Part shown: positions 6,338-48,742 of the stretch, in pieces
How the letters are laid out: every line of letters starts with the position of its first letter
Position numbering within the stretch: position 1 is the stretch's first letter
IMG/VR virus record: IMGVR_UViG_3300045993_000417
Span: 20,800-84,799 of that record
Reading direction: 5' to 3' (one strand)
DNA: 64,000 bases
DNA from: a virus
Notes under the pieces: model-generated
Databases searched by the model: none
What the model was told of the DNA's origin: nothing
What the model saw: the letters and a program-made list of their open reading frames with translations, nothing else
Program-made: the position numbers and the translations under genes

Positions 6338-6349
6338 TAGGGGATAAAC

Positions 6350-7243
6350 ATGAGTAATTACACAACCGAAACAATCAATACCCAATTCATCAATCAGTCT
6401 TTCTTGGACAAGATTGACCAAGGTATGGAAAAAGAAGCCGGCGCAGCAATGTCCGCATTCGTGCGTCAAAAACTGCGTGAAGATGGCTTTACACGTAAGA
6501 TCCTAACTCCAGTTTCGATCACTGCTTCCGAGCTAGATCGTCAACTGAGCGAAGAGCCACAAGTAATCGTAGAGAAAGAGCCAGACAGCGTTGCTGCAAA
6601 CTTGCCCTTCTTGTCTCGTGCTGAGATTCGCTACTTTACCGGTTCTCGTTATGCAGTAACTTTCCAGAAGATCACTTCTGCTGAGTTCAAGAAGTCTAAG
6701 TTCGAGTTGGCTACATACCGTACCGACATCCGCACTATCCTTCAAGAAAACTCGGTTAAGGATCTGCAAGAGCAAGAAGACAAAAACTTCTACAACAACT
6801 GCTTGGCAGTGGCTACAGCTAACAGCAACGTTCACGCCATCGCTGGTGGTTTCAACGTAGCTAACCTGAACGCTGGTATCAAGTTCCTGTTGGAGAAGAA
6901 ACTTCCTGTTGGTTGTATCCTGATGACTCAAAGCATGTATGCTGATCTGTTGGCTCAACCAGCTACTCAAATCGGTTCTGCAGCAGCTTCTGAGCTGTTC
7001 CGCGGCCAAGCTAGTCTTGACAATTTTTTTGGATACAAAATTATTACGACTAACAAAACTGACATCGTACCGACAAACCAAGCTGTCGTGTTTGCTCCGC
7101 AAGAGTATACCGGCCAGTTCTATTCCTTGCAGGAACCTCAAGTTTTCCTCAAGACAGAAGCCGATATGATCCAGTTCCAGACGTACGAAGCTATCGGTGC
7201 AGGCCTCGGAAATACCTCAGCAGTGCATTTTCTTAATTTCTAA
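6350..7243 (+). CDS. Major capsid protein (HK97 fold)
   Basis: 297 aa, very strong codon bias, follows protease/scaffold/decoration genes and is followed by a terminator. N-terminal EKEA is a candidate cleavage site. Confidence 0.8.
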   Translation: MSNYTTETINTQFINQSFLDKIDQGMEKEAGAAMSAFVRQKLREDGFTRKILTPVSITASELDRQLSEEPQVIVEKEPDSVAANLPFLSRAEIRYFTGSRYAVTFQKITSAEFKKSKFELATYRTDIRTILQENSVKDLQEQEDKNFYNNCLAVATANSNVHAIAGGFNVANLNAGIKFLLEKKLPVGCILMTQSMYADLLAQPATQIGSAAASELFRGQASLDNFFGYKIITTNKTDIVPTNQAVVFAPQEYTGQFYSLQEPQVFLKTEADMIQFQTYEAIGAGLGNTSAVHFLNF

Positions 7244-7265
7244 GAGGTTTTTAGAAAGTAACACT

Positions 7266-7294
7266 AAAAAGCCTGGAGAAATCCGGGCTTTTTT
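7266..7294. terminator. Intrinsic terminator after capsid operon
   Basis: AAAAAGCCTGGA-GAAA-TCCGGGCTTTTTT. Confidence 0.85.
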
Positions 7295-7348
7295 ACGTCC
7301 TCAAAATTGTAGTAGTTAAAAGTGTCCTAGTTATGTTAAAATAGGATT

Positions 7349-8530
7349 ATGAAACATACCAACAAATTATCGCAAGAAGAAGTAATACGTCGCATGACTT
7401 TGAAGAACCCTCAGTTTGATTTTTCAGAGTTTGTGTACACAAATAGTACTACCAAAAGTACTGTCATGTGTAGTACTCACGGTAGATTCCAACAGAATTA
7501 TAAAAGGCTGACTAACGGTATAGGGTGTGCCAAATGTGGTGGCGTAGCTAAAAAAGATCCAATATCTTATGTAGAGGAAATCACACGTAAGTTTGGCACA
7601 TTCTGTGACTACTCTAGGGTAGTATATCTAGGGGCCCGTTCAACGGTGGAGGTAGTATGCCCTATACACGGTGTATTTAGTGTAATAGCATGTAACTACC
7701 TTAATCTATATAAACACCCGTGTCCTAAGTGTGGTATTGATAATAGGGTCAAGAATCAGTTTGATTCTGCGGAGGATTTTATAAGGAAGGCGGTTTCCGT
7801 GCACGGATCTTTATATGACTACTCTAAGGTGGTATACGTAGGTTCTAAGATGCCTGTGGAAATAGTCTGTAAAACTCATGGGAGTTTCTTAAAGTCTCCC
7901 AATAAACACATAAGTTATAAAGGTGGATGTCAGAGGTGTTCTGAGGGTAACCGTATCTCTAAAGGTGAATCGAGTCTTCTTAATAAAGTATCGGAGCTGG
8001 GATTAGCTATACTGAAGAACAATAGGGGCATTCTACCCGGACGTAAAGAGTTGGATATGTACTTCCCTGAACTAAAAACAGGGATAGAGTATAACGGAAT
8101 ACTATGGCACTCGGAATATAAGGGGTCCAAGTTTAACCTATTGGACAAGACAAAACTGGGAGAAGCCGTAGGGGTTAAAGTATTACATATATTCGAAGAC
8201 GAGTGGGAGAACGATCCGGATAGGGTAATTAATATAACCAAAGCCGTATTAGGAACTGAGATAAACGATAAACAATTAGTAAAAGAGTGCTCCACCTTAT
8301 TTGGCGAACTAACATATTTAGATAGAAGGTACCCACTGCTAGATAAATTTCTACGCCTAGGATACGAGGTAATAGAGGTAGTAGATCCTAAACCCTGGTT
8401 TAGTAATGGATATAAAAATAGAGTACCCTACACTGAAGACATAAAATCAAGTAACCCCCGTGGAGTAGTAGTCTGGGACTGTGGAGGTTACCTATTAAAA
8501 CCACCGGCCAAAATTATGGGTGTAACATAA
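7349..8530 (+). CDS. Free-standing homing endonuclease (Zn-ribbon CxxHG..CxxC repeats plus Vsr/Hef-like nuclease domain)
   Basis: Three repeats of DYSxVVY..V.C..HG.F...C.KC. Nuclease motif ELDMYFPELKTGIEYNGILWH..LHIFEDEW and C-terminal WDCG. Confidence 0.8.
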   Translation: MKHTNKLSQEEVIRRMTLKNPQFDFSEFVYTNSTTKSTVMCSTHGRFQQNYKRLTNGIGCAKCGGVAKKDPISYVEEITRKFGTFCDYSRVVYLGARSTVEVVCPIHGVFSVIACNYLNLYKHPCPKCGIDNRVKNQFDSAEDFIRKAVSVHGSLYDYSKVVYVGSKMPVEIVCKTHGSFLKSPNKHISYKGGCQRCSEGNRISKGESSLLNKVSELGLAILKNNRGILPGRKELDMYFPELKTGIEYNGILWHSEYKGSKFNLLDKTKLGEAVGVKVLHIFEDEWENDPDRVINITKAVLGTEINDKQLVKECSTLFGELTYLDRRYPLLDKFLRLGYEVIEVVDPKPWFSNGYKNRVPYTEDIKSSNPRGVVVWDCGGYLLKPPAKIMGVT

Positions 8531-8694
8531 ACTAAGTCCGGCTCCCGCCGGAATACTTTTCACGATTTGGGATTGTTGGTACTACAAAAACTTCCAACAG
8601 ATTCAATTAACATCTTGATTCTCCCAAATCTTTATTGTTATTAAGATGTAACCCATCGCTGTTTTGATGGATATGATCTCCCTACTACAATATA

Positions 8695-8703
8695 CTTATA
8701 CCA
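8695..8703 (-). promoter_or_regulatory. Minus-strand promoter TGGTATAAG with no long ORF downstream
   Basis: CTTATACCA exact match to the class motif. Confidence 0.55.
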
Positions 8704-8733
8704 AAAAAGCGGTTCTTAATGTAAAATATGGTT

Positions 8734-9357
8734 ATGAATAAATATCTGATATCCATAGAGAAGGTGGCGATGAATGCCCTTAAGTCCAGGGTATTAGCTA
8801 AAGGTGTAGGGGTTATCGCACAGCCTGGGTCACAGTGGAAACGGGCTATAAGGGATTCCAAAAATTTTAAGTCAGTAGAAGATTTTCAGAATACCTGGAA
8901 ACATAAAGTACCAAACACTTTTAAGGTGGAGGGTACTGCTACTGCCATAACCAGGACTGGTGAAAAAATCCCTGGAGCGTATAATAAATATACGAAACTA
9001 ACTGATTCTCTAAAGTCTATAGAAAATAAAGGGTTAGGTAAAGTAACGTTTCTTAATGGGGAAGCAGCCTCCATAAAAACTAAAGGCTCTAATTTACAGA
9101 TACACCTAAAAAGTCATAATAATAGGAATATACTAGAGGCTGTTGGAAGCACAGTTAGCCCTACTGCAAGTGATACTACTCGTGGTAAAGGTTTATTTAA
9201 AGGACTATGGCCTCACATATCCAAAGAGTTAAGGAAGCGTGGGATAACCCATCTAGAGATGGAGCCTCAATCCCCCGTCTGGCATAAGAACTACAAACTT
9301 GAAAAAATACCAGAAAAAGACGTAGATTACTATAAACATAGAATACCAACTAAATGA
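8734..9357 (+). CDS. MNKYL..EKVA-leader protein with C-terminal GNAT-like acetyltransferase motif
   Basis: The second ATG (8734) gives MNKYL and lies 6 nt after TAAAAT. RGKGLFKGLW..LRKRGITHLEM resembles GNAT motif A and the following helix/strand. Confidence 0.5.
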   Translation: MNKYLISIEKVAMNALKSRVLAKGVGVIAQPGSQWKRAIRDSKNFKSVEDFQNTWKHKVPNTFKVEGTATAITRTGEKIPGAYNKYTKLTDSLKSIENKGLGKVTFLNGEAASIKTKGSNLQIHLKSHNNRNILEAVGSTVSPTASDTTRGKGLFKGLWPHISKELRKRGITHLEMEPQSPVWHKNYKLEKIPEKDVDYYKHRIPTK

Positions 9358-9707
9358 ATAAATACTTAGAAAAGATAGCATCCAGGTCAGACGGAGTTAT
9401 AAACTCCATCTTCGGATTCGGAGATAGACTGATAGGCCACTCTGCCGGCCGTGCTAAGACCATCCACAACTCCTTGAAGGACGCAGCTCATCTGGGTAGC
9501 GGTATCCCAGCCTCTACCATGCGCAAGGCTAAGGAGCTATCTGATGCTGCCTCTCTGGCTTCTCGTAACACTCGTATCCGTACTGCTCTAGCAGTGGGCG
9601 GTGGTGTAACTGCTGGGTATCTCGGTATCCACAAGTACCAGCAACATAAAGATGAGAAGATTATGCAGAAGATCTTATCTAACGCACAAAACAATCAAGT
9701 ATACTAA
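9354..9707 (+). CDS. Putative internal head protein (MNKYLEKIA leader, hydrophobic Gly-rich segment)
   Basis: Exact MNKYLEKIA N-terminus; ALAVGGGVTAGYLGI. Confidence 0.55.
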   Translation: MNKYLEKIASRSDGVINSIFGFGDRLIGHSAGRAKTIHNSLKDAAHLGSGIPASTMRKAKELSDAASLASRNTRIRTALAVGGGVTAGYLGIHKYQQHKDEKIMQKILSNAQNNQVY

Positions 9708-9715
9708 AATACGTA

Positions 9716-9744
9716 TTGACTAAATTAGAGAGACGTACTAAAAT
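9716..9744 (+). promoter_or_regulatory. sigma70-like promoter TTGACT-N17-TAAAAT
   Basis: Canonical spacing upstream of 9777, with an AAGGA RBS. Confidence 0.65.
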
Positions 9745-9776
9745 CACGTTCTCTTACATAACTTAAAGGAAACAAA

Positions 9777-10211
9777 ATGTACATTCAAAACACCCTAAAC
9801 CATACTCTAGTTCTGAAAGCCGGATACTTGAAGTTGGCTGCAGGCGCAACAAACGTCAATCCCCTTACAGAGGATGACTACAAGGACACTACTATTGCTG
9901 ACGCAATCTCTCGTGGTTGGGCTAAAAAAGTAACTGAGGCTATCGCTGCTGCTGAAGTGGCACCGGTTGCAGTTACTGTAGCTAGCTCTAAGGGAGGTTT
10001 GACTCTTGAAGAACTAAAGGCTGAACAGGCTGCTAAAGTAGAGAAGCCAACTGCTTTCACTACTGAGCTTGGTCTTAGCGATGGTATCCCTCAGGGCGGT
10101 GCAGTAGGTTCTACAATCGGAGTGCCTATTGAGACTTACGTAACTGAGCCTGTAGTAGCTCCAGTAGAAGAAGTTAAAGAAACAAAAGCCTCTAAGGCTA
10201 AAAGTAAATAA
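9777..10211 (+). CDS. Hypothetical (virion-associated?) protein
   Basis: 144 aa with RBS, promoter and terminator. Confidence 0.65.
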   Translation: MYIQNTLNHTLVLKAGYLKLAAGATNVNPLTEDDYKDTTIADAISRGWAKKVTEAIAAAEVAPVAVTVASSKGGLTLEELKAEQAAKVEKPTAFTTELGLSDGIPQGGAVGSTIGVPIETYVTEPVVAPVEEVKETKASKAKSK

Positions 10212-10241
10212 AGTATCCCTACATATAAATTGGAATACTTT

Positions 10242-10263
10242 CCGGCCTTAGGGCCGGTTTTTT
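10242..10263 (+). terminator. Intrinsic terminator
   Basis: CCGGCC-TTAG-GGCCGG-TTTTTT. Confidence 0.8.
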
Positions 10264-10282
10264 ATTGTGCTAAACTCTAGTC

Positions 10283-10726
10283 ATGGCTACTATACAAATT
10301 CTAACTGTTGATGAAGTACGTGAGTACTTAGGTGATTACGCTCAAAACAACCGCCTGATTGAAGGTGAGGAGTTTTCAGATACCAGAGTTTCGCTCTGCA
10401 TGGGACTGGCAGTAGATGAATATAATACCAACCCACCTTTCACAGTGTATAGTACGGCGGATTTCCCCTCCAAGTCTATATTGCTCTGGGGAACGTTGTG
10501 GAAGATGTTTGAAGGTAAGGCTGCAGAGTTTGCACGAAACACTCTGTCATACAGTGACGGCGGTGTACAGATACCAATTGAGGAAAAGGCGGAGTTGTAT
10601 AAGACTCTAGCTAACGGTTTCCATCAGAACTTCAACGACCAAATGAGAATCCTAAAAACACACGTTAACATGGAATCAGGCTGGGGTGACGTTCGTGGAG
10701 ATGCGAGCCTTTTCCCTATTTGGTAA
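10283..10726 (+). CDS. Head-tail adaptor/neck protein
   Basis: 147 aa helical protein with VREYLGD and LSYSDGGVQI features typical of head-completion proteins; located between capsid and tail genes. Confidence 0.55.
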   Translation: MATIQILTVDEVREYLGDYAQNNRLIEGEEFSDTRVSLCMGLAVDEYNTNPPFTVYSTADFPSKSILLWGTLWKMFEGKAAEFARNTLSYSDGGVQIPIEEKAELYKTLANGFHQNFNDQMRILKTHVNMESGWGDVRGDASLFPIW

Positions 10727-10729
10727 TCT

Positions 10730-10759
10730 AAAAAAAGCCCAGGTTATTCTGGGCTTTTT
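10730..10759. terminator. Bidirectional intrinsic terminator
   Basis: AAAAAAAGCCCAG-GTTATT-CTGGGCTTTTT between convergent genes. Confidence 0.85.
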
Positions 10760-10760
10760 A

Positions 10761-11105
10761 TCAAACACGCAGAGCGGTAATATATACCCCTATTGCCCTG
10801 TAAAACATCCCATCCTTATTATTGGTGTCCTGTAGTACCAACACGGTTACTTCCGAGTGGCTGGTAAAATCAGGTTCTTTAAGTGCGGGCTTTATCAAAG
10901 ACATTTCCTGGTCATGTAATTCTTTCTCTGAATAGGCTTTTATCATTATAAAGGGAACATAGGCTAGCCTGTGTTTGTAATCCCAGTAATCCCCCCTACC
11001 ACGGATACACCTAGTTAGGCCCTCTATTTCTATGACCTTGATAGGACCACCTTCTAGTTGTTTATCTAACTCACTAACAGATATAGGTTTATACGTTATG
11101 TTCAT
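10761..11105 (-). CDS. Hypothetical protein
   Basis: 114 aa, coupled to the phosphoesterase gene, AAGGA/GAG RBS. Confidence 0.65.
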   Translation of the reverse strand: MNITYKPISVSELDKQLEGGPIKVIEIEGLTRCIRGRGDYWDYKHRLAYVPFIMIKAYSEKELHDQEMSLIKPALKEPDFTSHSEVTVLVLQDTNNKDGMFYRAIGVYITALRV

Positions 11106-12015
11106 TCTCTTCCTTAGTTGAAGTTATGATGAGCGTCTCATGTTCTACCAACCCTCTGGCCTCATTCATTTCACCAGCGTAACCTACGCAGTTATTGATT
11201 AGTACACACTCCCCGAACACGGTGGTATCCTGGTAATGAGTATGTCCATAGAACCAGTACCTGATGTTTGGGTTGTCCATAATCAAGTCACTCAAGTCTG
11301 AGGCGTAATAACAGTTAGAAGTGTCCCCTGCGTACCTAGGATCACACAGACTGAACATCGGTAAGTGATGTGTTATTACTATCACTTTCTTGTTAGGGTT
11401 TTGTCTAGCTATAAAGCGTATGTATTCCTTGTGCCTTTTATGCACATTAACCCAGCGCTCTGACGTAAATCTATCCCACCTGCCCTCAGGACCGGTATCG
11501 TATGATATCTTACCGTCGTAAGCCATAACTCTATTTAGGTTCATCATAGAGAAGGGATCATTCTTATTCATGTCTGTCCAAAGAGTACAGCCTACAAACA
11601 AGAAGTCACCATCCACGTAAGTGTCGCAGTCAAGTACTTTGACGTTGTGTAACCCCCTGTTGGCTAGAAGTTCGTTACACTTCTCACCACCCCTTCTGAT
11701 AGTTAAGCTACCAGAGTTAATCGGCCAGAAATCATGGTTTCCAAGCACTATAAGCACCTGTTTAAACCTACATGCAACCTTCTCGATCCATGTCCTAGAA
11801 TCTACCGTGAATGGTCTAGGAGTATCCTTATCTATTAGAATCGTTTCCCTAGAGAAGTCCTCCCATTCGATAAACCTGGTGCCGGTCCATAAGTCCCCTG
11901 CCAGTATGAGGATAGTCTCAGCGTCGTCTGGTAGAACCGGTGGATACCAAAGTTTACCTAGCTTATAGTGATCTAAATGAATATCAGAGTATTCACGTAT
12001 TTTTAACTGTTGCAT
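11089..12015 (-). CDS. Calcineurin-like metallophosphoesterase
   Basis: All five motifs present: SDIH, AGDL, GNHD, THH, GHTH. Confidence 0.92.
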   Translation of the reverse strand: MQQLKIREYSDIHLDHYKLGKLWYPPVLPDDAETILILAGDLWTGTRFIEWEDFSRETILIDKDTPRPFTVDSRTWIEKVACRFKQVLIVLGNHDFWPINSGSLTIRRGGEKCNELLANRGLHNVKVLDCDTYVDGDFLFVGCTLWTDMNKNDPFSMMNLNRVMAYDGKISYDTGPEGRWDRFTSERWVNVHKRHKEYIRFIARQNPNKKVIVITHHLPMFSLCDPRYAGDTSNCYYASDLSDLIMDNPNIRYWFYGHTHYQDTTVFGECVLINNCVGYAGEMNEARGLVEHETLIITSTKEENEHNV

Positions 12016-12042: not shown

Positions 12043-12071
12043 CTTATACCAAATATTCTACCATACTTTAA
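12043..12071 (-). promoter_or_regulatory. Minus-strand promoter TTAAAG-N17-TATAAG (TGG extension)
   Basis: CTTATACCA at 12043-12051 and TTTAA at 12067-12071; overlaps the divergent TAAAAT of gene 12081. Confidence 0.7.
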
Positions 12072-19031: not shown

Positions 19032-20150
19032 TCACGCAATCTGTACTTGCTGAGTTCCAACATTGTTAACGTCTTGAGAAACAAATTCTTCTACTCTTAC
19101 GTCTTGACTATTGCGCACATTCGTTGTTCTACGCCCATAGATTTCTTTAAAACGACTCATAAAATGAGATCCAGCTTGTGGGTTAAGCTGGTTGAACCAG
19201 TTCAATCGCCCGTTCATGACACTTATGAATTCATCTTCGGTAATTTGATTTTTAGAAGCTTCCACTTCTATACCGTTAACTTCACAGTTGTGTATGATTG
19301 CTCTGAGTGTATTACGTTCAGTTTTTTGCAGATTGACCTTACTGTTCACAACGGCTCCACAGACATACTGCCGTTGATAATATTTCATTACTTTGGTCTT
19401 ATCCTGGTTAACCCTAAACCCGAATCTTTCCACAGTCTCTCTCAAGTATGAGATAAGAGAATGCACCGTATCACTTCCCGTGTTATCAACTAAGTTATCA
19501 GAAGATATAGTAATGTCATCAGCATAGATGGTTAATGTATAACCACGCTCATCACAGTAGTCCTTGATTAAAGGACCGAAAGTGTATGTTGTAATGATGT
19601 TACTCAACTTAGGGCTCGTTAATGCCCCCTGTGGTACGAATGATTTGTACGTACACAGTTCTGATAATAGTCGTGCTGGCTTTTCGCCAAACCCGATATG
19701 CTTAAATATCTGGTCCAAGTGATACTGTTTGATACTTTGGAAATAGTCCTTTAAGTCAACGGAGACTATAACCTTCTTACCTACATGCTTCTGAGCCATC
19801 GTCGGGATGTTCTTACCTTTCTCAAATGCATACACGTAATCAGGAACCTGTATCTGTTCCAGAATCTCTTTAAGGATTCTGAATTGTACTAGCCGCATCG
19901 GCTGGTCGGGGTTGTACAGCGTCCGAAACTTCCCAGATGCCCCCTTCTTCCTTATGGATAGAATGGAGTAGTGATTCAACTTGTTCATTCCAACATAAGT
20001 CAGCCTGTTGGCAAACTTCATTTTCAACTTCGCTGCTAGTTGTTTGTTGGTCTGGATTGTGAATAGTGGGCTTGCCACTGGAAATAAGGACAACTGAGGA
20101 TACACTGGATTTTGTGCACTCAGCTGTTGTTGTGATTGATTTAATTCCAT
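19032..20150 (-). CDS. Retron-type reverse transcriptase
   Basis: IRKK..GKFRTLYNP, YAFEKGKN..MAQKH (region X-like), VDLKDYFQSI, VPQGALTSPKLSN, IYADDITIS, GFRVNQDKT, YVCGAVVN (region Y VTG-like). Confidence 0.92.
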   Translation of the reverse strand: MELNQSQQQLSAQNPVYPQLSLFPVASPLFTIQTNKQLAAKLKMKFANRLTYVGMNKLNHYSILSIRKKGASGKFRTLYNPDQPMRLVQFRILKEILEQIQVPDYVYAFEKGKNIPTMAQKHVGKKVIVSVDLKDYFQSIKQYHLDQIFKHIGFGEKPARLLSELCTYKSFVPQGALTSPKLSNIITTYTFGPLIKDYCDERGYTLTIYADDITISSDNLVDNTGSDTVHSLISYLRETVERFGFRVNQDKTKVMKYYQRQYVCGAVVNSKVNLQKTERNTLRAIIHNCEVNGIEVEASKNQITEDEFISVMNGRLNWFNQLNPQAGSHFMSRFKEIYGRRTTNVRNSQDVRVEEFVSQDVNNVGTQQVQIA

Positions 20151-20445
20151 TTTGTACCTTCTCCAATTCTCTAGATTTACGGATAACGCCCCTCATTAAA
20201 TCTGGGAGAGTTACCTTATAACATTTTTTTTCGATTACCACGATACCTTCTCGTAGTACTGGCGGGTGCTTATCAAACCTCATTATCAAGTCACCATCCT
20301 TATAGGGGAGTAAAGTGACTCTGAAGTAGTTATACAAGTCACCCTGCTTCACGATGAAATAGTTATTTTTTCTAGTCATGGTTTCGGATACCGACGTAGG
20401 AGCTTTTATCTTTGCAACGAAGTCATCAGTTATTACTAAGGACAC
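19870..20445 (-). CDS. Hypothetical protein upstream of RT; its 3' 281 nt overlap the RT gene in another frame
   Basis: GGGAGG RBS before GTG; the first ~98 aa look like a folded beta-rich domain. Confidence 0.6.
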   Translation of the reverse strand: MSLVITDDFVAKIKAPTSVSETMTRKNNYFIVKQGDLYNYFRVTLLPYKDGDLIMRFDKHPPVLREGIVVIEKKCYKVTLPDLMRGVIRKSRELEKVQNGIKSITTTAECTKSSVSSVVLISSGKPTIHNPDQQTTSSEVENEVCQQADLCWNEQVESLLHSIHKEEGGIWEVSDAVQPRPADAASTIQNP

Positions 20446-20789: not shown

Positions 20790-20868
20790 ATGATTTACCT
20801 TTTATAGAATGTGTATATTTTTAAAGGCTTCTATAAAGGAAGATGAAGTACTCACGTTACCTAAATTA

Positions 20869-20897
20869 GTTATACCAAAAAAAGAGGGAAAATTTAA
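20869..20897 (-). promoter_or_regulatory. Minus-strand promoter of the RT operon (TTAAAT-N17-TATAAC, TGG extension)
   Basis: GTTATACCA at 20869-20877 and TTTAA at 20893-20897. Confidence 0.65.
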
Positions 20898-24907: not shown

Positions 24908-26245
24908 CTACCAGTCAATAGCTGGCACTGGTTCTACTACATTGTTTTGAAGAGTATGCATCGGTGCTGGTTGTACTTCATCTACTCTTAGTAACGCTGG
25001 TGCTATAGCAGGGCTAAGGTCATTAACCTCAGCCACTAGAACAACACCCTCATTGTTTTGATAATCCCTACTGACAACTTGTAACGGTGGAGCATCTTCG
25101 ACGATCTTTTTAGATCGCTTAGACGGGCTTTTGACCCCTACCACTGCAGTCTCTACGACTTCAGCGGCCACCACTTTGATTTTGTCAGTAATAGGAAGTG
25201 CATCAGCCAATTCCTTAGCCTTAGCTTTCTCAGCAGCGGCCTTAGCCGCTTTCTCAGCCTTAATACGAATCACTTCTTCCTTCTGAACAATACCACTCGC
25301 CATAGTCATAACCAGGTCGGTCTGACTATGATCAAAACCACGCGTGCTATTACCAGTTAACTCCTTAAAGTTATCATGTGCTTTAACCTTCTGGACGCTG
25401 GCTGTTACGGACAGGAAATGAGACATCGTATTGAACGTAGTGGAAGATCCTCCGGCCATGTCCACGAACACCTTATTGAAGTTCATAGGTTTACGGTAGT
25501 AATAGTTCTGAACTACAGCAATTATGTTCGTAGCAACCAGAGCGTTGATAGCCAAGGTTTGATCAAGATCAGCACAACTACCTAGTCCTGGGTTATCCGC
25601 CAAGCTCAGGTAGTGATTAACATCCATTGGGATGAATGTAATGTCGTCTACGTGAGTGATCAGCTTAGGTAACTTTGCTACCAACGAGCTGTCCCACTCA
25701 TTAGGGTGTATGGCTACAGCTGGATTAAAGAAGTTGACTTGTCCAAAGTTGTCCTCATTACCTGAATCAATGATGAACACGTTTTCCTGCTGTTGGCCAT
25801 GACCTATGATTTCAAGGGCATTGGATAGGATCTTTCTCCTAGCTACTACAGAGTCAACACACATGATAATCATGACTGGTTCATTTACCAGGTTAACGTT
25901 CAATTCTCTTTTGAAGAACTGATAGATATCTGCGGGACCTTCAATGGCAGTAATCATTGGGGTAATGGACAGGCCGTACGCTTTGCTATAGCGTTCAGCC
26001 AATACCACAGCCTTATTCTTACTGATGTCCTGACGAATGAAATTCTGGCGAGCCAGGTTCTTTTCTTCAATTATGTCGAAGTCACATAGAACGATGTTAG
26101 GAGTACCTAACCATCCACGTGGGGAATACTCACGAGTGATTGATCTCATGAACTGTGCCAACAGGGGAACTAGCCTTGAGCCAGTTCCACCGCAGCCTAC
26201 TACGATGATGTTATGCGGGATTGATGATGGGATGAAATTAAACAA
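24908..26245 (-). CDS. E1-like ubiquitin-activating enzyme (ThiF family, PRTRC type)
   Basis: IVVGCGGTGS, CDFDIIEEKNLARQNF, NKAVVLAERY, CVDSVVAR, IDSGN..GQV, candidate catalytic GSCA..Q..AIN; AAGGAG RBS before TTG. Confidence 0.92.
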   Translation of the reverse strand: MFNFIPSSIPHNIIVVGCGGTGSRLVPLLAQFMRSITREYSPRGWLGTPNIVLCDFDIIEEKNLARQNFIRQDISKNKAVVLAERYSKAYGLSITPMITAIEGPADIYQFFKRELNVNLVNEPVMIIMCVDSVVARRKILSNALEIIGHGQQQENVFIIDSGNEDNFGQVNFFNPAVAIHPNEWDSSLVAKLPKLITHVDDITFIPMDVNHYLSLADNPGLGSCADLDQTLAINALVATNIIAVVQNYYYRKPMNFNKVFVDMAGGSSTTFNTMSHFLSVTASVQKVKAHDNFKELTGNSTRGFDHSQTDLVMTMASGIVQKEEVIRIKAEKAAKAAAEKAKAKELADALPITDKIKVVAAEVVETAVVGVKSPSKRSKKIVEDAPPLQVVSRDYQNNEGVVLVAEVNDLSPAIAPALLRVDEVQPAPMHTLQNNVVEPVPAIDW

Positions 26246-26293
26246 GTGCCTCTCCTTTTTAATTGATAGGAGGGGCGTTTAACCCCTCCACAT

Positions 26294-27160
26294 TCACATG
26301 CCGTTTTCTGCTACTTTCTGTTGATACTTGAGAGGTAGAGATCCAAACAAGTCCTTAATCATATCTAACTGCTTTTCGTCTTCCATCAACTGGAATAGAT
26401 CACTGATAGCTTCTGACAAGAGCTCATTCTTACCTACTAAAGGGGCCATACAATCGTTAAGCAACGTGAAGGCGTTAGCCACCTCGCTACCGTATTGTAT
26501 AGCCAGGTATGAGTATTGGTCGCTATCTACGTTACCAATGTCACTACCATGGAACCTACCTACAGGATCCCCCTCTTCTACCTCTCCGTAGTTGTTAAAG
26601 CCGTCTACGTTGTCACCCTCTAATTGAGTCCTTGAGTGCCCGTTTGTTTGCTCGTTTATCTCGTTTCGAGAGCCAGCGGGACCCAGAGGGAGCTTCCCCT
26701 GAGCCCCCGATGGAAAACCCGCTGGGAGCCCTCCTTCGTAACCTTCGTACATCTCGTCTGCTGATGAGTTGAGAGCACGATTTGGGAGAGAGCGCAAACC
26801 AGGTCCTGCACGTTCACCAGAAGGTGTATGAGCATTTGGACGAGGACGACCATACTGATACTGCTCAAGATGATCCCACTTACGGCCACCTTGGTGTGTA
26901 CCGTGCTTACCACCGTATGAGCCATAGGTAGTTACATTGACGTTATTCAACCACTCTTCAGGTACGTCTACCACACGGTCTGCTGGTGTGTGGAAGATAT
27001 CTTGGAGTTTCACTTCATACTTCTGTTTGTAGTAGTTGAAGCGGATCTTTACTTCTGGTTCTTTGTCTTTGAGTTTTCCTACAACACCTGAAAAACCGAT
27101 GGCGTTAAGGTCATCTCGATCATCCGTGCCTGAAAAGAAACTCCCCATTGTGTTATGTGA
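26294..27160 (-). CDS. JAB/MPN metallopeptidase (PRTRC protein A-like), exon 2
   Basis: Begins SHNTMGSFFSGTDDRDD, completing HSH..FFS..DD with exon 1; spliced product 442 aa. Confidence 0.88.
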   Translation of the reverse strand, partial: SHNTMGSFFSGTDDRDDLNAIGFSGVVGKLKDKEPEVKIRFNYYKQKYEVKLQDIFHTPADRVVDVPEEWLNNVNVTTYGSYGGKHGTHQGGRKWDHLEQYQYGRPRPNAHTPSGERAGPGLRSLPNRALNSSADEMYEGYEGGLPAGFPSGAQGKLPLGPAGSRNEINEQTNGHSRTQLEGDNVDGFNNYGEVEEGDPVGRFHGSDIGNVDSDQYSYLAIQYGSEVANAFTLLNDCMAPLVGKNELLSEAISDLFQLMEDEKQLDMIKDLFGSLPLKYQQKVAENGM

Positions 27161-27502
27161 CATAACGTGTTATGGTTTTCTTTTTAATTACAAAACCCTT
27201 GAAATACTAACTTAAACGTAAATACGATAAGTTTTTACCGATAGTAAATCAAGATCAGACTATATCATCATCTTCAGAAGTATTGCCTGAAGAGTTGGGC
27301 GCTCGTGTTCCTATTATTGCATAGACTGCTCAAGGATTAGTCGTTACACTTTCTTGCTACTTCAATGTCTTTTCGCAAGCTTAGCACGGGATTATGTGTA
27401 TTGGACACGTTTTCCCCGTTAGCAGGATTTCTCCTACACCTCAGTTGTCTGAGTTCACCCAATTTATTCACTACAGATCGCTCCGTAGGTCCACTCACTT
27501 TA
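27161..27502 (-). mobile_element. Group I intron (IA-like, 342 nt, no ORF)
   Basis: 5' exon ends in U (ATCCAT|) pairing with IGS GTGGA; terminal G; P10 GTGA/TCAC; P3 TTGGGTG/CGCCCAA; P7 GACTA/TAGTC with GATATAGTC; P8 TCTTCAG/CTGAAGA. Removal restores the frame and motif. Confidence 0.92.
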
Positions 27503-27964
27503 ATGGATATCCACGATAACACTAGTTCCATCGGGGATGTAAGCCCAGTCGTAACTAGCACTACCTTTAGAAACAGTCTGAGGGGGAACACCGATGTGGT
27601 ATCCACGCTCAGGATTATAAAGGACATGAATCATGGCCTCTACTTCTGATTTCTTTACTTCCATGACCTTCTTGAAGAAGGCGATGATTTGTTCCCAGAT
27701 CTCGTACTGAATCTTACCCGCTGGTAAAAAGGCAATTTCTTGCTTGGTCATTTCAGCAGGAATAACCTCAGACGCAGGACGAACGTACCCAGGGATGGAA
27801 TCCACTTTCAACCTAATGAAACGGTTCTCACCTCGGAATACGTGTCGCTTGAAAAACTCATCCTTTACTATGGTATAAATTTCTTTATACCCCTGTGCAA
27901 CTGCGTCCGTCTCTTCTTGAAGACTCGCACAGATGCAGCTAATGCTGGGCATTAATATTTGCAT
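27503..27964 (-). CDS. JAB/MPN metallopeptidase, exon 1
   Basis: LPAGKI..FF..SEVEAMIHVLYN..VPPQTVS..VIVDIH; AAGGAG RBS. Confidence 0.88.
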
Positions 27965-28003
27965 CCTCCACTCCTTAAGTTAAGCTACAGGTGTTACTAT
28001 ACT

Positions 28004-28032
28004 CTTATACCAAAAACTGCCGTTTTGTTTAA
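28004..28032 (-). promoter_or_regulatory. Internal minus-strand promoter for JAB-E1
   Basis: CTTATACCA at 28004-28012 and TTTAA at 28028-28032. Confidence 0.65.
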
Positions 28033-28835
28033 CGACGTAGGTGCTCGTATGGAAATGGTTTGTTATCTTTAGCCAAATCACGCAGGTGGTGATACCACTG
28101 TCTGGGCGAGCCAAACTTAACGATGTTCACCTTACTAGAGATACCTAGGTCATTACTGAACGGAGATTCCCATAGGAAGTTATAGTAGTAGTCAAGACCA
28201 CGTAGGTTGTTATCCACAAACCTAGCAGGCATCTTGTTACCACCATAACACATGTTACATGAGTCATATGAGTTGGTGAACGGCATAAGGGAAATACCCT
28301 TAGTGTGATCAACTCTAATGATTTGAACATCCGTTGGTAGTTTATTAACAGGAGAGTCCGTGACGGTGTAGTATGCGTTCGTGTTAACCCAGTCATTCTT
28401 CTCACGTTTGAGTTTGTGACTGATGATGATGTTAGGCACTACGATGTCGAACTTCTCCGTCTTACCTTCACCCATATACTGGAAAGGCTTAATACCTTCT
28501 CTGTAGTAGCAAGATATATCCAACTCAGTAGGTCCTACCGCTATGAAGAACGCACTGGTAGGAAGTGTCAATGTCAGTTTACTCTCTTTTGAAAGAGTGT
28601 TAGTGGCTTTGAGTACTGAGTTGATGAAGTCCTCATAGGACACGGTCTTGGTGATTCCACCAACCCCCTTAACCACTACGGAGTCGTCAAGTAGTACCAC
28701 TTCTTGTCCAGACACCTCTACCATTGCTAGCAAGGATCTCTCTAGATCAGAGAGTGAAGTTTCTTTGACCATTTTAGGAACAGCCTCTACCACCTCTACT
28801 TCTGGGCGTGAGCCCTCAATAAATATGTCGTTCAT
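28029..28835 (-). CDS. Prokaryotic E2-like protein (Prok-E2 family D / PRTRC protein B-like)
   Basis: MPFTNSYDSCNMCYGGNKMP..FLWESPFSNDL matches the PFxN..xCxG..FxxSxFxxDL pattern; context with E1, JAB and Ubl. Confidence 0.75.
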   Translation of the reverse strand: MNDIFIEGSRPEVEVVEAVPKMVKETSLSDLERSLLAMVEVSGQEVVLLDDSVVVKGVGGITKTVSYEDFINSVLKATNTLSKESKLTLTLPTSAFFIAVGPTELDISCYYREGIKPFQYMGEGKTEKFDIVVPNIIISHKLKREKNDWVNTNAYYTVTDSPVNKLPTDVQIIRVDHTKGISLMPFTNSYDSCNMCYGGNKMPARFVDNNLRGLDYYYNFLWESPFSNDLGISSKVNIVKFGSPRQWYHHLRDLAKDNKPFPYEHLRR

Positions 28836-29098
28836 TATACGAAATCCTCTGAGGAAAAATTGGAGTAATGTTTAGCTTTTTGGAGAGTACTAATCACGCT
28901 GTTAACTACGTTTCTCAAGTGGAGACTACTCTCAAACTTGAAAGTACTAGTAAGATCCTTAACACAAGAAATTACGTCTTCACGAGTCTCAATGTTCCTT
29001 ATTACGCAAGCGTCTTTCACTACCTGGATAGCATCGGTAGAAATGTCTGAAGCGTTGTTCAACTCTAAAGCCATATTAGACAACATAGGCATTTGCAT
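28835..29098 (-). CDS. Hypothetical protein in Ubl cassette
   Basis: 87 aa, coupled to the E2-like gene. Confidence 0.6.
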   Translation of the reverse strand: MQMPMLSNMALELNNASDISTDAIQVVKDACVIRNIETREDVISCVKDLTSTFKFESSLHLRNVVNSVISTLQKAKHYSNFSSEDFV

Positions 29099-29876
29099 TG
29101 TAGTGACCCTTTCTGCTTAGCGTTTTGATGACTTTAGGTATGTCATCAAAGAATGTGAATAGATTGAATGAGGAGCACTCTGGATGAGAGGAGTAGGTAT
29201 TTATTTGATTTTCAGCTGAGTTAAACTCGTATCTGTTTCCATCAGATTTATACCAAGATCCTAATTCTAATGTGAGGCGGATTGTAAATAGAATCTGGAT
29301 ATTCTCCGTTGTGGTAGTAGGTATGTCCCCGAATATGTCTGTTCTACGGAAGGTCTTAATACGTAGTGGGCATCCATTAATGGCACACTTGTGATTGATG
29401 TACCTAGCATACCTCTTTACGGTTGGGAAATCACAAGTATCATCGGTATCTTCCAAGAATGATGACACACTTTCAAAACTTAAGTTAATGTAGCTAGAGT
29501 TTTTATCACTTATATATCCATACTCTACTAGGTCACTATGAGGTATACTCTTAACCACTTTGAGTAGAGGTAGATCCAGATGGAACCTATTGTAGTGAAG
29601 CTCTATCTCCGCCTTCTCCATGAAGTCCATGTAGGGTACCTTCTTAAGGACTTGACCGTACAAAGAGGTATAGATCTTTTTAAAAAACTTCCTAGCGTTG
29701 GTTGAATTAACTCTGATGTCAGCCACTACCGTGGAGGAGCTGGGGATAATGCCATACTCCTTACTCTTAGAAGTAGTGAACTCTAGGAGCTTCTTGATTT
29801 TTGTTCCACTATACTCCGTTACTAAACTCGTCAAAGATGATAAGCTATTTTTTAGAAAAATCTTTACTGTTGCCAT
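29076..29876 (-). CDS. Hypothetical protein in Ubl cassette
   Basis: 266 aa, GAGGAG RBS. Confidence 0.7.
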   Translation of the reverse strand: MATVKIFLKNSLSSLTSLVTEYSGTKIKKLLEFTTSKSKEYGIIPSSSTVVADIRVNSTNARKFFKKIYTSLYGQVLKKVPYMDFMEKAEIELHYNRFHLDLPLLKVVKSIPHSDLVEYGYISDKNSSYINLSFESVSSFLEDTDDTCDFPTVKRYARYINHKCAINGCPLRIKTFRRTDIFGDIPTTTTENIQILFTIRLTLELGSWYKSDGNRYEFNSAENQINTYSSHPECSSFNLFTFFDDIPKVIKTLSRKGHYNANAYVV

Positions 29877-29896
29877 GATTGAATTCTCCTCTTACT

Positions 29897-29931
29897 AAAA
29901 AAAACGGGTCCAGCTGGACCCGAACCCGTTT
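29897..29931 (-). terminator. Intrinsic terminator directly after the Ubl gene
   Basis: CGGGTCCAGCTGGACCCG palindrome followed by T8 on the minus strand. Confidence 0.75.
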
Positions 29932-29950
29932 CTCTACCTGATACTAGGGA

Positions 29951-30166
29951 TTAACCCTTTGTACCTGTCTTTGGACGGAAGGTGATGACGCGAACTTGGC
30001 CAATGCCATCACGTGTCACGATTTCTTCCGAAGATTGATAGCCGGACAGACCTGGGATCTGGCTGGAATACGCTGCGATAACCTGAGAAACGCTCAATGA
30101 CCCAGGGACCTGGTACTCGGTATCAGTTGCGGTAATTACGATGTTTGTTTGGACGATCTCTGCCAT
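29951..30166 (-). CDS. Ubiquitin-like protein (Prok-Ub / PRTRC protein C-like)
   Basis: 71 aa, beta-grasp-compatible, C-terminus TFRPKTGTKG; AAGGA RBS. Confidence 0.85.
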   Translation of the reverse strand: MAEIVQTNIVITATDTEYQVPGSLSVSQVIAAYSSQIPGLSGYQSSEEIVTRDGIGQVRVITFRPKTGTKG

Positions 30167-30258
30167 TTTGATTCCTTTTTCGTTAACGATTTAAAAAGTA
30201 TGAGCTAAAAGGAAATGCTACTAGCCGGCTAATAACTATGCTTTTCCCGCTCAATACT

Positions 30259-30287
30259 GTTATACCACAGTATCACAATTTATTGAA
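30259..30287 (-). promoter_or_regulatory. Minus-strand promoter of the Ubl cassette
   Basis: GTTATACCA at 30259-30267 and TTGAA at 30283-30287. Confidence 0.65.
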
Positions 30288-30497: not shown

Positions 30498-31151
30498 GTG
30501 GCTAACCTCAACTCCAGGGGCATCGACTTAGATACCCATAAGAAAATTTGTAATACATGTGCAGTAGAAAAGCTAGGCACTGAATTCAGCAAAGCATCCA
30601 ATAATAAAGATGGCCTTGTTTGTAAATGTAGGCCCTGTGTCAAAGAATGGGATAGAAAACATCGTGAGGCCAATCTGGAAGAGATTAAGGCTTACGATAG
30701 AGCTAGATATATAAGAGATAGAGAGAAAAGGTTAGCCCTATCTAAACATTGCAATAGCAAGCGTAAACCTATAAAAAAAATACAGGACGCTGTACGTTAT
30801 AACTTAAATAGAGAGGCGGCTTTATTAAGAGCAGCAGTTTATAAAAGGGAAAATAGGGGTAGGTATAATGCTTTAGGCAGAGCTAGAGAACTTAAAAAAA
30901 TCCAAGCCACGCCTTCATGGTCAGAAAGGGAAGAAATAATATCTCTGTATAACGAGGCCACTAGGCTGACGGTTGAAACAGGTATTCCTCATCATGTAGA
31001 TCATATTATACCCATCACCCACTCATTAGTTCAGGGCCTTCATGTACTAGCGAACTTGCGCATACTTACCGCTAAGAAAAACATAGAACGTGGAAATCGT
31101 ATAGACTTAGATAAATACGATCATTTTTTACCTAATGAATTACAACCATGA
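30498..31151 (+). CDS. HNH endonuclease with N-terminal Zn finger
   Basis: CNTC..CKCRPC; ATPSW; HHVDHIIPI..GLHVLANLRILTAKKN. Confidence 0.88.
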   Translation: MANLNSRGIDLDTHKKICNTCAVEKLGTEFSKASNNKDGLVCKCRPCVKEWDRKHREANLEEIKAYDRARYIRDREKRLALSKHCNSKRKPIKKIQDAVRYNLNREAALLRAAVYKRENRGRYNALGRARELKKIQATPSWSEREEIISLYNEATRLTVETGIPHHVDHIIPITHSLVQGLHVLANLRILTAKKNIERGNRIDLDKYDHFLPNELQP

Positions 31152-46495: not shown

Positions 46496-48742
46496 ATGAC
46501 AACGTATTCAGGATTCGGAGTAGATGGTCTACCAGTTGGTGCTAACGACACCAACCTTACATACCTATATGGTATATCAGACTTCTTCTCTGTTATGTTC
46601 GAGGACACTAGTATAATGAATCTTATACTGGAGTCTACGTCAGAATCTGCCGCCTCTATATATAGCAGGTTCTTACAGTTAGCTTCTTCCATTAGTCTTA
46701 AAGATATTGAAGACTCTATAGGGTCGACTATTAAACTTGTAATAATTAAAGACTCTTACGCTGTTGCCGGTAAAACTAATACCTTTAGCCTACCCATAGA
46801 CATTGTTAGTTCTAAGTTTATAGCTAATAGACCCTTACTACCAACTACTTCCCTGGCTACCGGTGTTGACTACAGGATTAAGAATGGGGAATTACTACTA
46901 TACAAACCCTTATCTGAGCTGGGATTCCCTGCTAGAGTAGTTTCAGATGGGACTACCGAGTACGCTCTTTGGTTTGTAGACGTAGAGGTGGATGAACAGT
47001 TACTATATAAACACTACGCAAATCTTATCGGAGTAGATCCGGCCTCCTCTACTGAGGTATATAAGAGTTTCATATATGGCCTATACTATATCTACTATCA
47101 AGGTCCTACCTTATCTATTCTTCGTAAAGGGCTTAACCTATGTCTAGGCATCCCGTTGGCCAGAGAGGATGAAGAGGTTATTGATGTCCGCCCATACGTA
47201 GACACAGACCAGTACATAGTAATAACGGATAAGAATAAATACGTCCTTCCATATGGGCTAGTACCTTCAGTACTTCCAGGGGACTTCCTAAGTGCATCCG
47301 ATGAGCTATCTCAGTGGGTAGAAATTAAAGACTGGGTTGAGGACGGAGAGTGGTGGATAAACTTATCAATACCCCCCTCATTAATACCAGCCCTACCTGA
47401 AACACAAATAAACCGGTATGCTACTGTAGGGAGTGATTTTGACTACCTTATGCGTACCTACCTGAAGAACCATACCTTTCTTGTAAACGTTAAGGTAAGC
47501 ACCTTTAAGAATAACCAGGACTTCCAGCAACTATCTGAGATTATAAATAGAGTTAAACCACTGTATTCTCAAGCTGTGTATATATGGAGTATACCTTACT
47601 TAGAAGAGGTGTTGACGGCTACGGATGACTTACTTCAACGTAGGGACAAACGTACTACAGAGAACCTTACTTTCCCAATATCCAGGATGGTTAGGGATAA
47701 TACTAGGATTTTAGGGTTAGCACCTGGTAATATGAATAATGACTCTGTTAACTTTAACGTTAGCGGACTACCTACAAGTACTTCCATCCCTGTTGATTGT
47801 ATAATCAGGGATACTCCGTTGTTTATGCGTATGAATGTATCGGAGTCTGTAGGTAACCTTTTCACACGAGGGTTATCTATGAGGACTGGTGATCAAACTG
47901 TTACTGGAATTATAAATCTTCAAGGACAGTACGCCAATACTATGAGTAATAACAAGGGTTGGTTAACTACCTTATTTAATAGAGGGCAAGACACCTATAG
48001 GATTAAAAGGTCTACCTTCTCTAATACTAGGGGATTAGGGGTATCCTTCGGTCAACCGGTGTCTAGTGGATACTCATCTACTGCTCTAGTGTTGTCCGAT
48101 AAACGTGTTATTCCTATGTATATAATAACCGACGATACTATGGCTATAAAATGTAATGCTATGAACATTACTACTCCTAATCCTTTACACTGGAGTTTTA
48201 ATATAATGTCTAAAGGTATTGACCAGACTGTCAATAGCGTAGCCATAAATGCTGACTCAAGCCTAGAGAACAGTAAGGAGCTTCTGATAGCCAACTTTAG
48301 TATAATTTTTAGCAGACCTGATTATCAGATACCTGATAGCCCATTTTTACCCAAGGGCGGAGACTTCCTATGGTTACCACAATCCTATACGGACTTAAGA
48401 GATGGTGATATAGCTATGGGAATAAGAATACTACCAGGTCTTATTGGAGTATACTTAGTTACCTCTAATCTTGATTTGGAGGCCTCTCCATATGTAGTAG
48501 TACCGGATCCCGATCCTGTAGTGCAACAGATATCTTCTGGTATGTCTAGAGGGTTAGGGACTACACTTTCTACCGTGTACTCTATGAGGGGAAGGGGGGT
48601 TTTAAGCTATAATACATCTAGTAACGGGATCAACGAAGGTGGTCAAACGACTACTATAAATACCGAATATTCGGATGCTGATAACGCCCCCATACAGATA
48701 ATTAGGAACGGTTCTATCATAGTACATAGGGCCCATAGATAA
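46496..48742 (+). CDS. Baseplate wedge protein (gp7/gpI-like)
   Basis: YKSFIYGL..GPTLSILRKGLN, INRVKP; follows the J-like gene. Confidence 0.55.
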   Translation: MTTYSGFGVDGLPVGANDTNLTYLYGISDFFSVMFEDTSIMNLILESTSESAASIYSRFLQLASSISLKDIEDSIGSTIKLVIIKDSYAVAGKTNTFSLPIDIVSSKFIANRPLLPTTSLATGVDYRIKNGELLLYKPLSELGFPARVVSDGTTEYALWFVDVEVDEQLLYKHYANLIGVDPASSTEVYKSFIYGLYYIYYQGPTLSILRKGLNLCLGIPLAREDEEVIDVRPYVDTDQYIVITDKNKYVLPYGLVPSVLPGDFLSASDELSQWVEIKDWVEDGEWWINLSIPPSLIPALPETQINRYATVGSDFDYLMRTYLKNHTFLVNVKVSTFKNNQDFQQLSEIINRVKPLYSQAVYIWSIPYLEEVLTATDDLLQRRDKRTTENLTFPISRMVRDNTRILGLAPGNMNNDSVNFNVSGLPTSTSIPVDCIIRDTPLFMRMNVSESVGNLFTRGLSMRTGDQTVTGIINLQGQYANTMSNNKGWLTTLFNRGQDTYRIKRSTFSNTRGLGVSFGQPVSSGYSSTALVLSDKRVIPMYIITDDTMAIKCNAMNITTPNPLHWSFNIMSKGIDQTVNSVAINADSSLENSKELLIANFSIIFSRPDYQIPDSPFLPKGGDFLWLPQSYTDLRDGDIAMGIRILPGLIGVYLVTSNLDLEASPYVVVPDPDPVVQQISSGMSRGLGTTLSTVYSMRGRGVLSYNTSSNGINEGGQTTTINTEYSDADNAPIQIIRNGSIIVHRAHR

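Follow-up and report, generated by a model that had tools for sequence, protein, structure and literature searches.

The DNA considered here, called the window throughout, is a 64,000-nucleotide (nt) stretch of the genome of an uncultured phage found in wetland and pond metagenomes (positions 20,800 to 84,799 of IMGVR_UViG_3300045993_000417, a virus record of 84.8 kb in IMG/VR with an estimated completeness of 67%). Its minus-strand cassette at 24908-30287 probably encodes a self-contained pathway of the ParB-Related, ThiF-Related Cassette (PRTRC; NCBIfam TIGR03734-03742) type, by which a ubiquitin-like protein (Ubl) would be both conjugated and removed again. The window holds mostly plus-strand virion genes, and the cassette, one of its few minus-strand islands, lies between the large terminase gene (TerL) and a block of virion genes, inverted relative to both flanks. 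In transcript order it comprises the genes for the Ubl (also called the tag below), a protein of 266 amino acids (aa), a protein of 87 aa, an E2-like protein, a JAB peptidase (in two pieces) and an E1. The original prediction, made from the letters of the window, had placed these six open reading frames (ORFs) at the same positions and had called the Ubl/E2/JAB/E1 set complete and intact, which was borne out by the family matches and invariant catalytic residues described below. The features of the cassette, with the basis of each in brackets, are as follows.

30260-30287, minus: promoter-like site TTCAAT-N14-TGGTATAA(C), extended -10 type, before the Ubl gene (motif, predicted)
29951-30166, minus: ubiquitin-like protein, 71 aa, C-terminus TGTKG followed by the stop codon (ORF, AlphaFold2 model, hhalign)
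29895-29935, minus: intrinsic-terminator-like hairpin with an eight-T run, directly 3' of the Ubl stop codon (predicted)
29076-29876, minus: orphan protein, 266 aa, positionally conserved and fast-evolving (ORF)
28835-29098, minus: orphan protein, 87 aa, overlapping both neighboring genes (ORF)
28029-28835, minus: E2-like protein of the Prok-E2_D / PRTRC_B type, 268 aa, with Cys196 (ORF, profile matches)
28005-28032, minus: second promoter-like copy, TTAAAC-N14-TGGTATAA, in the E2-JAB gap (motif)
27503-27964, minus: JAB peptidase exon 1, 154 codons, its last residue being the first His of HxH (ORF, alignment to Salmonella phage Arash)
27161-27502, minus: group I intron, 342 nt, without an ORF, starting with UAA and ending with G (Rfam RF00028, Arash orthologue)
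26294-27160, minus: JAB peptidase exon 2, with SH..S..D and a C-terminal extension of ~240 aa (ORF, PRTRC_A)
24908-26245, minus: ThiF-type adenylating enzyme (E1), 445 aa, extended at its C-terminus by ~165 aa of low complexity (ORF, Pfam ThiF)

The enzyme assignments were examined by profile searches and by scoring residue invariance over 22 to 23 non-identical orthologues from the phage lineage that carries the cassette. A search with the Pfam ThiF model, as suggested by the original prediction, placed the E1 above the cut-off (47 bits versus 28.1). Its best NCBIfam family was PRTRC_ThiF (81.7 bits, E 5e-23), below the TIGR03736 cut-off of 144.75, and the orthologue of phage Arash reached 55 bits against the same model. 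The E1 family profile matched MccB, UBA3, SAE2 and UBA1 among the sequences of the PDB, where a phmmer search with the single E1 sequence gave no match. The GxGGxG motif at residues 17 to 22 as well as D55, D57, R66, K78, D131 and C224 were invariant in 23 orthologues that are only 31 to 70% identical, in agreement with the ATP motifs and candidate catalytic cysteine first read from this protein.

For the E2-like protein, Prok-E2_D was the only Pfam match in all four orthologues searched, with 14.8 to 24.2 bits; since every one of these lies below the cut-off of 25, the suggested Prok-E2_D search fell short, whereas its counterpart with Prok-JAB succeeded for the uninterrupted JAB orthologues of Arash and of Vibrio phage D69 (31.8 and 35.5 bits; cut-off 25). 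Against PRTRC_B (TIGR03737, cut-off 131.45) the window E2 scored 14.2 bits and that of D69 16 bits, and an hhalign comparison of the E2 family with PRTRC_B gave a probability of 69% (E 4.4e-5). All 30 of 30 feature matches in the ESM Atlas were Prok-E2_D clusters (score 0.96), one neighboring cluster carrying the name 'putative PRTRC system protein B', and the ESM Atlas model of the E2 superimposed on a Prok-E2_D cluster with TM scores of 0.59/0.70; the E2 profile gave chance matches only in the PDB. The conserved cysteine that had been pointed out in this protein proved to be invariant: C196 is present in 23 orthologues within the motif PF.N.Y....MC.G.N, together with P185, N188, Y190, G198 and N200 (22 to 23 orthologues). 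Likewise, all five JAMM residues of the spliced JAB (E109, H154, H156, S164 and D167) were invariant, matching the intact E..HSH..S..D described earlier. Exon 2 of the JAB gene scored 37.1 bits against PRTRC_A and the whole Arash JAB 76.6 bits, with a TIGR03735 cut-off of 101.8.

The AlphaFold2 model of the Ubl, built from five close sequences, had a pLDDT of 85.3 and a strand-strand-helix-strand-strand order, and nearly all its neighbors in the PDB were beta-grasp or Ubl proteins (the TINCR Ubl, MoaD, ubiquitin variants, FAT10, SUMO and ISG15). The PRTRC_C model (TIGR03738, cut-off 45.95 bits) found no match, at E<=1 for the window Ubl and E<=5 for the Arash orthologue. By hhalign, the profile built from the phage tags aligned to one of genuine PRTRC protein C with a probability of 93.6% (E 2e-7), and the two families have the C-terminal GTKG in common. 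This end hardly varies within the lineage; a few members have GNKG or GAKG instead. The tag gene of the lineage encodes a monomer or two to five head-to-tail copies joined as ...GTKG|A..., and some tags carry a short tail (INYSK, ALA, A or ND) after the last GTKG. Something must therefore cut after GTKG in these relatives, and the adjoining JAB is the obvious candidate. The tag of this genome already ends in Gly and, as read from its gene, needs no such processing, which had led to the suggestion that the JAB is probably a deconjugase; that role is retained here, but it was drawn too narrowly, as the tandem copies and tails of the relatives imply that the JAB of the lineage must process precursors too. 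A tblastn search with the Ubl gave no match, probably owing to the low complexity and shortness of the sequence; the copies in Arash and D69 were found by reading the loci. In Arash (L003; OQ632216, ~180513-180713, complement) the deposited gene gp251c is in the wrong frame (L003:102-320 rather than L003:107-307), and an overlapping 66-aa ORF ending in RTGTKG is the Ubl orthologue.

An adenylating enzyme beside a small beta-grasp protein could also make up a system of the ThiS/ThiF or MoaD/MoeB type that carries sulfur or otherwise works without conjugation, in which the small protein would be thiocarboxylated. The E1 does weakly match ThiF and MoeB models too, MoaD is among the structural neighbors of the Ubl, and the invariant Cys224, part of an SCADL motif, falls within the C-terminal half of the E1 domain, which is conserved; no ThiF or MoeB alignment spanning the Cys224 region was obtained, and Cys224 may correspond to the ThiF/MoeB cysteine. 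Sulfur transfer, however, needs no E2-like protein with an invariant cysteine, tandem poly-Ubl genes are a usual feature of conjugated tags, KG rather than GG forms the end of the tag, a search of the contig (67% complete) revealed no rhodanese, and the closest relatives are PRTRC cassettes rather than cofactor operons. We consider a sulfur carrier very improbable.

The JAB gene is interrupted by the 342-nt intron within its zinc-binding motif (H|SH), and both the intron and the splice junction were read correctly from the start, as judged by an Rfam match, by alignment to Arash and by a contig lacking exactly these 342 nt. The Intron_gpI model (RF00028) matched over its full length at 27237-27512 on the minus strand with 29.1 bits (E 2.6e-5), below its gathering score of 50. 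Exon 1 ends in ...VDIH followed by TAA, and exon 2 reads SHNTMGSFFSGTDD right after an ATG made by the last three bases of the intron. When aligned to the uninterrupted Arash JAB, the last residue of exon 1 and the second residue of exon 2 fell on adjacent codons, which fixes the junction at DIH|SHN. Removal of the intron restores the reading frame and yields a protein of 442 aa, and the joined JAB aligns to PRTRC_A across the junction (E 3e-5), which neither half does alone. Hallmarks of group I introns are present, namely a 5' exon U paired with G in P1, the arrangement CCAU|UAA...GUGG and a terminal G at 27161.

Within the lineage, an intron was found only in the window and its two closest relatives (L004 and L005); the JAB genes of the other members are uninterrupted. 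The core of the window intron is 85% identical to that of the relatives (L004:4970-6113; same coordinates in L005), which scored 33 bits against RF00028 in L004 and sits 6 nt further downstream (HSH|N versus H|SH). Both sites follow a CCAU that pairs with a GUGG guide, and the next pair is compensated (U-A in the window, G-C in the relatives). The introns of L004 and L005 are ~1.14 kb long and contain a 290-aa ORF on the opposite strand (L004:5159-6031), a putative LAGLIDADG-type gene by motif reading. In the wetland run X2, a 91-nt contig (depth 6.3) joins the JAB exons and omits exactly 342 nt, while the main X2 contig breaks at the position of the intron (27159-27502). The shorter side of the junction contig is 29 nt, which is weak evidence taken singly but exact, and two of its letters differ from the window. 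It most likely derives from an intron-less relative, which suggests that intron-plus and intron-less variants coexist in the X2 sample.

The E2 of the cassette was detected in only four of 50,697 phage records (Salmonella phage Arash and Vibrio phages D69, D148 and D181), and megablast of the cassette region against the same records gave no match. The E1 profile found 179 contigs in IMG/VR, 80 of which were examined at the level of the locus. About 30 of these belong to the same lineage of 100- to 190-kb phages, in which TerL is followed divergently by Ubl-(266)-(87)-E2-JAB-E1 and convergently by the virion genes p146-p176-p295. The remaining contigs are smaller and carry PRTRC-like B-A-ThiF sets; six of them, of 38 to 46 kb, have canonical PRTRC. 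These six (L076, L081 and L085-L088), all classed as viral in IMG/VR, hold the sets E, C, F, B, A and ThiF, and may be phage-plasmids, prophages or misclassified plasmids.

As an independent sample, we took 38 loci picked by terminase alone (TerL identity of at least 47% and enough upstream sequence), and the full cassette was found at the same place in 37 of them; the remaining locus has its tag gene 9 kb off, at one edge of the stretch examined. One member of the lineage (L031/L149) carries the cassette away from p146-p176-p295. Outside the lineage, a relative with 40% TerL identity (L145; IMGVR_UViG_3300013121_000049, 6288-11587) has p295, p146 and TerL colinear on one strand with no Ubl cassette between them, and marks the empty insertion site; a group at ~31% TerL identity has no cassette either. 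The retention in 37 of 38 loci and the colinear outgroups without a cassette point to a single, inverted entry between p146 and TerL, and the cassette, inserted once and kept by the sampled descendants, therefore matters to the phage.

The signals flanking the tag gene suggest how the cassette could be expressed. The promoter-like site before the Ubl gene has the form TTCAAT-N17-TATAAC, with TGG just upstream of the -10 element. Of 25 non-redundant lineage loci, 23 have TGGTATAA before the Ubl gene, and it often recurs before JAB or E1; the position in the E2-JAB gap (28005-28032) is also occupied in L004 and L005, and other relatives have a copy before E1. Scanning the window with the pattern TT[CA]AA[TA]-N14-TGGTATAA returned six sites versus 0.99 expected, all of them on the minus strand.

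8696-8723, 12044-12071, 20870-20897, 28005-28032, 30260-30287 and 46684-46711, minus: promoter-like pattern sites (pattern scan)

Three of the six lie directly upstream of minus-strand islands, that is, a 308-aa gene (11089-12015), a reverse transcriptase (RT) unit (~19032-20445) and the Ubl cassette. We infer from the sequence that the TGGTATAA motif acts as a promoter, and the pattern may define a transcription class of inverted, non-structural islands. Upstream of the Ubl gene, L004 and L005 share with the window an identical 46-nt non-coding block (30222-30267, minus) between diverging flanks; the block takes in the promoter-like site and, just downstream of the -10-like element, the perfect palindrome TAGCCGGCTA, which could be an operator or a leader structure. 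Behind the Ubl gene, the terminator hairpin had a z score of -3.56, and none of 200 shuffled sequences folded as well. Of 20 non-redundant lineage loci, 16 have a hairpin and a T-run behind the Ubl gene, and their stems are unrelated in sequence. With a terminator right behind the tag gene, much more tag than enzyme is predicted to be made. Between the Ubl promoter region and TerL, the window also has a free-standing HNH / endonuclease VII-type gene (30498-31151, plus strand, 217 aa; match to phrog_1035, E 2e-20), which overlaps the start of TerL by 4 nt and is missing from L004 and L005, where the gap is only ~360 nt.

Neither of the two orphan proteins, of 266 and 87 aa, matched a Pfam, NCBIfam, PHROG or PADLOC family. 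The 266-aa protein is represented by eight clusters among 1.84 billion representatives and shows weak similarity to its positional counterparts in Arash (320 aa) and D69 (233 aa); none of its cysteines is invariant across the lineage. Its AlphaFold2 model was mediocre (pLDDT 66.5) and had no clear structural neighbor, and the ESM Atlas gave no usable match. A similarity to the small domain of pyridoxal phosphate enzymes (Z<=6.7) was dismissed as a common arrangement. The 87-aa protein is recognizable only in close and some distant relatives, and the overlap of its gene with both adjoining genes suggests translational coupling. The hhalign comparisons of the two families with PRTRC F, E and the small protein gave probabilities of at most 0.2%, which leaves the idea of an E3 or adaptor purely positional. 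The original prediction had proposed that these proteins are E3-like and select substrates; in the absence of a family, of profile similarity, of an informative structure and of an invariant cysteine, we set this aside as unsupported, not as refuted. Eight separate stretches of another protein, P0012 (1168 aa), resemble residues 122 to 184 of the 266-aa orphan; P0012 may be made up of repeats or be an artefact of assembly.

The E1 is intact, the E2 keeps its cysteine in all orthologues compared, a JAMM peptidase is present, the beta-grasp tag always ends in Gly, relatives have poly-tag genes, and the tag is predicted to be over-produced. Together these points favor true conjugation, and a cycle of tagging and untagging run by the phage itself is, on this sequence evidence, a well-founded inference. 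Such a cycle could proceed as follows. A host-type promoter (TTCAAT-N17-TATAAC, TGG upstream) would drive the operon, and the terminator would make the 71-aa tag far more abundant than the other products. In this genome the tag would be made ready for use, ending in Gly71, whereas in relatives the JAB would cut poly-copies and tails after each GTKG. The E1 would then adenylate Gly71 with ATP by means of GxGGxG, Arg66, Lys78 and Asp131 and may load it onto Cys224, from which the tag would be handed to Cys196 of the E2-like protein and then joined to one or more target proteins through an amino group. For target choice, the two orphans, both fast-evolving, would be the best candidates, an idea taken from their position. 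Finally, the JAB could remove the tag, once its mRNA has lost the group I intron in the HxH motif.

Concerning the targets, we lean slightly toward host or competitor proteins over the virion or assembly proteins of the phage itself, and early action on such proteins is proposed tentatively, at a little under even chances. The cassette is an inverted island whose promoter motif is shared with minus-strand non-structural islands, including the retron-type one, outgroups build p295-type particles without it, the orphan proteins evolve fast, and its bacterial relatives are borne by plasmids, which have no virion.

Alternatively, the tag could be attached to virion or assembly proteins of the phage (e.g., the products of p146, p176 and p295) either to decorate the particle or as part of morphogenesis, and the particle may carry the enzymes with it. 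This would fit the location of the cassette between TerL and p146-p176-p295, its fixation in the lineage and the excess of tag, as expected of a reagent consumed stoichiometrically. The E1, E2 and p295 orthologues of Arash were also detected in particle preparations, but this is a weak point. In GenBank, the Arash E1 and E2 orthologues are annotated 'structural protein', a label that in the Arash paper means detection by mass spectrometry with at least two peptides in a particle preparation (PMC10585845); as the numbering of that proteome maps uncleanly onto the GenBank locus tags, only these labels were used for E1 and E2. The detection implies that the proteins are made. The list is not virion-specific, and the inverted orientation of the cassette relative to both flanks, its own promoter-like motif shared with non-structural islands, the outgroup phages that have p295, p146 and TerL without it, the placement away from virion genes in L031/L149 and the bacterial relatives, which serve plasmids and no virions, all speak against this explanation. 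We therefore regard tagging of the phage's own particle as rather unlikely.

The same chemistry might instead serve as a phage-carried defense like Bil, by which virion proteins of competing phages would be tagged during co-infection. There is precedent in that the bacterial Bil system, with E1, E2, JAB and Ubl, tags the central tail fiber of phages (10.1101/2023.09.04.556158). The fast evolution of the orphans would agree with such a role, and so would the other defense-like island in the window, a retron-type RT behind the same promoter-like motif. Defense cargo, however, usually differs from one close relative to the next, whereas this cassette is retained in 37 of 38 loci, and no PADLOC model matched beyond the nucleotide-binding part of the E1; a defense of this kind thus seems a long shot.

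Several observations weigh against the pathway and the host-directed role that we favor. With respect to the components, the E2 of the window itself stays under the Prok-E2_D cut-off (24.0 versus 25 bits), no curated hidden Markov model (HMM) in Pfam or NCBIfam recognizes the Ubl, structural matches to the Ubl score low (Z 4-5, Foldseek E 0.03-0.3), which is normal at a length of 71 residues, and no E3-type domain was detected in the cassette. With respect to timing, the promoter class is defined by its motif only, none of the public runs listed for the phage is an RNA run, and phages of the lineage encode RNA polymerase subunits and a sigma factor of their own (PMC10585845), so that the motif need not mean early transcription. 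With respect to targets, strict retention over such deep divergence is unusual for counter-defense genes, and 116 proteins, ribonucleotide reductases among them, were listed for Arash particles (PMC10585845), so that detection does not show residence in the virion.

Going beyond this phage, PRTRC-type cassettes could be offensive tagging systems of mobile elements, which would use an abundant polyubiquitin-like tag to mark host or rival proteins on entry, or their own particle proteins. The lineage described here, culturable on Salmonella and Vibrio, would then be the first tractable model of a bacterial virus running a complete cascade of E1, E2, Ubl and deubiquitinase for its own benefit. 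We offer this as a speculative proposal, at somewhat under even chances. The culturable models in which targets could be sought by routine genetic and proteomic means are Salmonella phage Arash and Vibrio phages D69, D148 and D181.

To our knowledge, PRTRC cassettes, which are carried by conjugative plasmids and by integrative and conjugative elements, have remained unexplained since their description. The likeness noted in the original prediction holds in that PRTRC is the closest relative: PRTRC families are the best NCBIfam matches of the E1, JAB and E2, the order Ubl (C), two genes, E2 (B), JAB (A) and E1 (ThiF) is the same, the Ubl ends in (R/K)xGxGTKG in both, and both have one small (~70-90 aa) and one larger (~270-340 aa) middle gene. 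Actual membership does not follow, however. The middle genes are unrelated in sequence, and their large/small order is swapped; every curated cut-off was missed; and ParB and proteins E and F are absent, the latter two giving no HMM match in the cassette. That no ParB is present had been noted before, and ParB_N was indeed found neither in the contig nor in four complete lineage genomes. Further differences are the long C-terminal extensions on the JAB and E1, the poly-Ubl of the relatives, and the carrier, which is a lineage of large, lytic-type phages with the cassette adjoining the terminase gene. Two of four bacterial relatives examined on conjugative plasmids lie beside ParB, and the other two beside DnaN and a methylase gene. 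Because of the missed cut-offs and the absence of ParB, E and F, we call the cassette, on sequence grounds, a diverged phage variant of the PRTRC kind and not a member. It ties these phages to the PRTRC cassettes of plasmids and of integrative and conjugative elements.

We know of no experimental study of bacterial Ubl conjugation other than as anti-phage host defense (Bil and Cap2/Cap3 of CBASS, an anti-phage signaling system based on cyclic oligonucleotides). Here the same chemistry is encoded by a virus and kept, with intact catalytic residues, across a deep lineage of 100- to 190-kb phages. Bil (BilABCD) has the same four activities (Ubl, E2, JAB and E1) and the same predicted chemistry, but no sequence relation was detected beyond the superfamily level, and the phage cassette differs by its single beta-grasp Ubl with a GTKG end and by being carried by a phage and not by a host. 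In CBASS, E1 and E2 are fused, whereas the cassette encodes them in separate ORFs with the JAB between. PADLOC 2.0.0, whose coverage of Bil models was not verified, gave no match for the Ubl, E2 or JAB; only the nucleotide-binding part of the E1 matched CBASS 'E1-E2' models, with at most 25.6 bits, and for five of the six cassette proteins PHROGs and PADLOC together held no family. A literature search found no paper describing such a phage cassette, which, given its limited reach, is no proof of novelty, and nothing useful was found that links PRTRC or ThiF to anti-defense in plasmid leading regions.

Two further systems bring a beta-grasp protein and a JAB together. In the virion region of lambda-type phages, the genes of tail proteins I (a Ubl of beta-grasp fold with a conserved Gly) and K (JAB and NlpC/P60) adjoin (PMC1779556), so that a phage-encoded beta-grasp protein stands beside a JAB peptidase as in the cassette; there is neither an E1 nor an E2 in that pair, which makes activation or conjugation of a tag impossible there. 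In the polyUbl operons of type 6e described by Iyer, Burroughs and Aravind in 2006, the JAB is predicted to separate tandem Ubl domains (PMC1779556), a need shared by the relatives of the cassette with two to five copies. Type 6e operons encode an inactive E2/RWD-like protein and a JAB-E1 fusion, whereas in the phage cassette the E2 cysteine is kept and the JAB and E1 are separate proteins.

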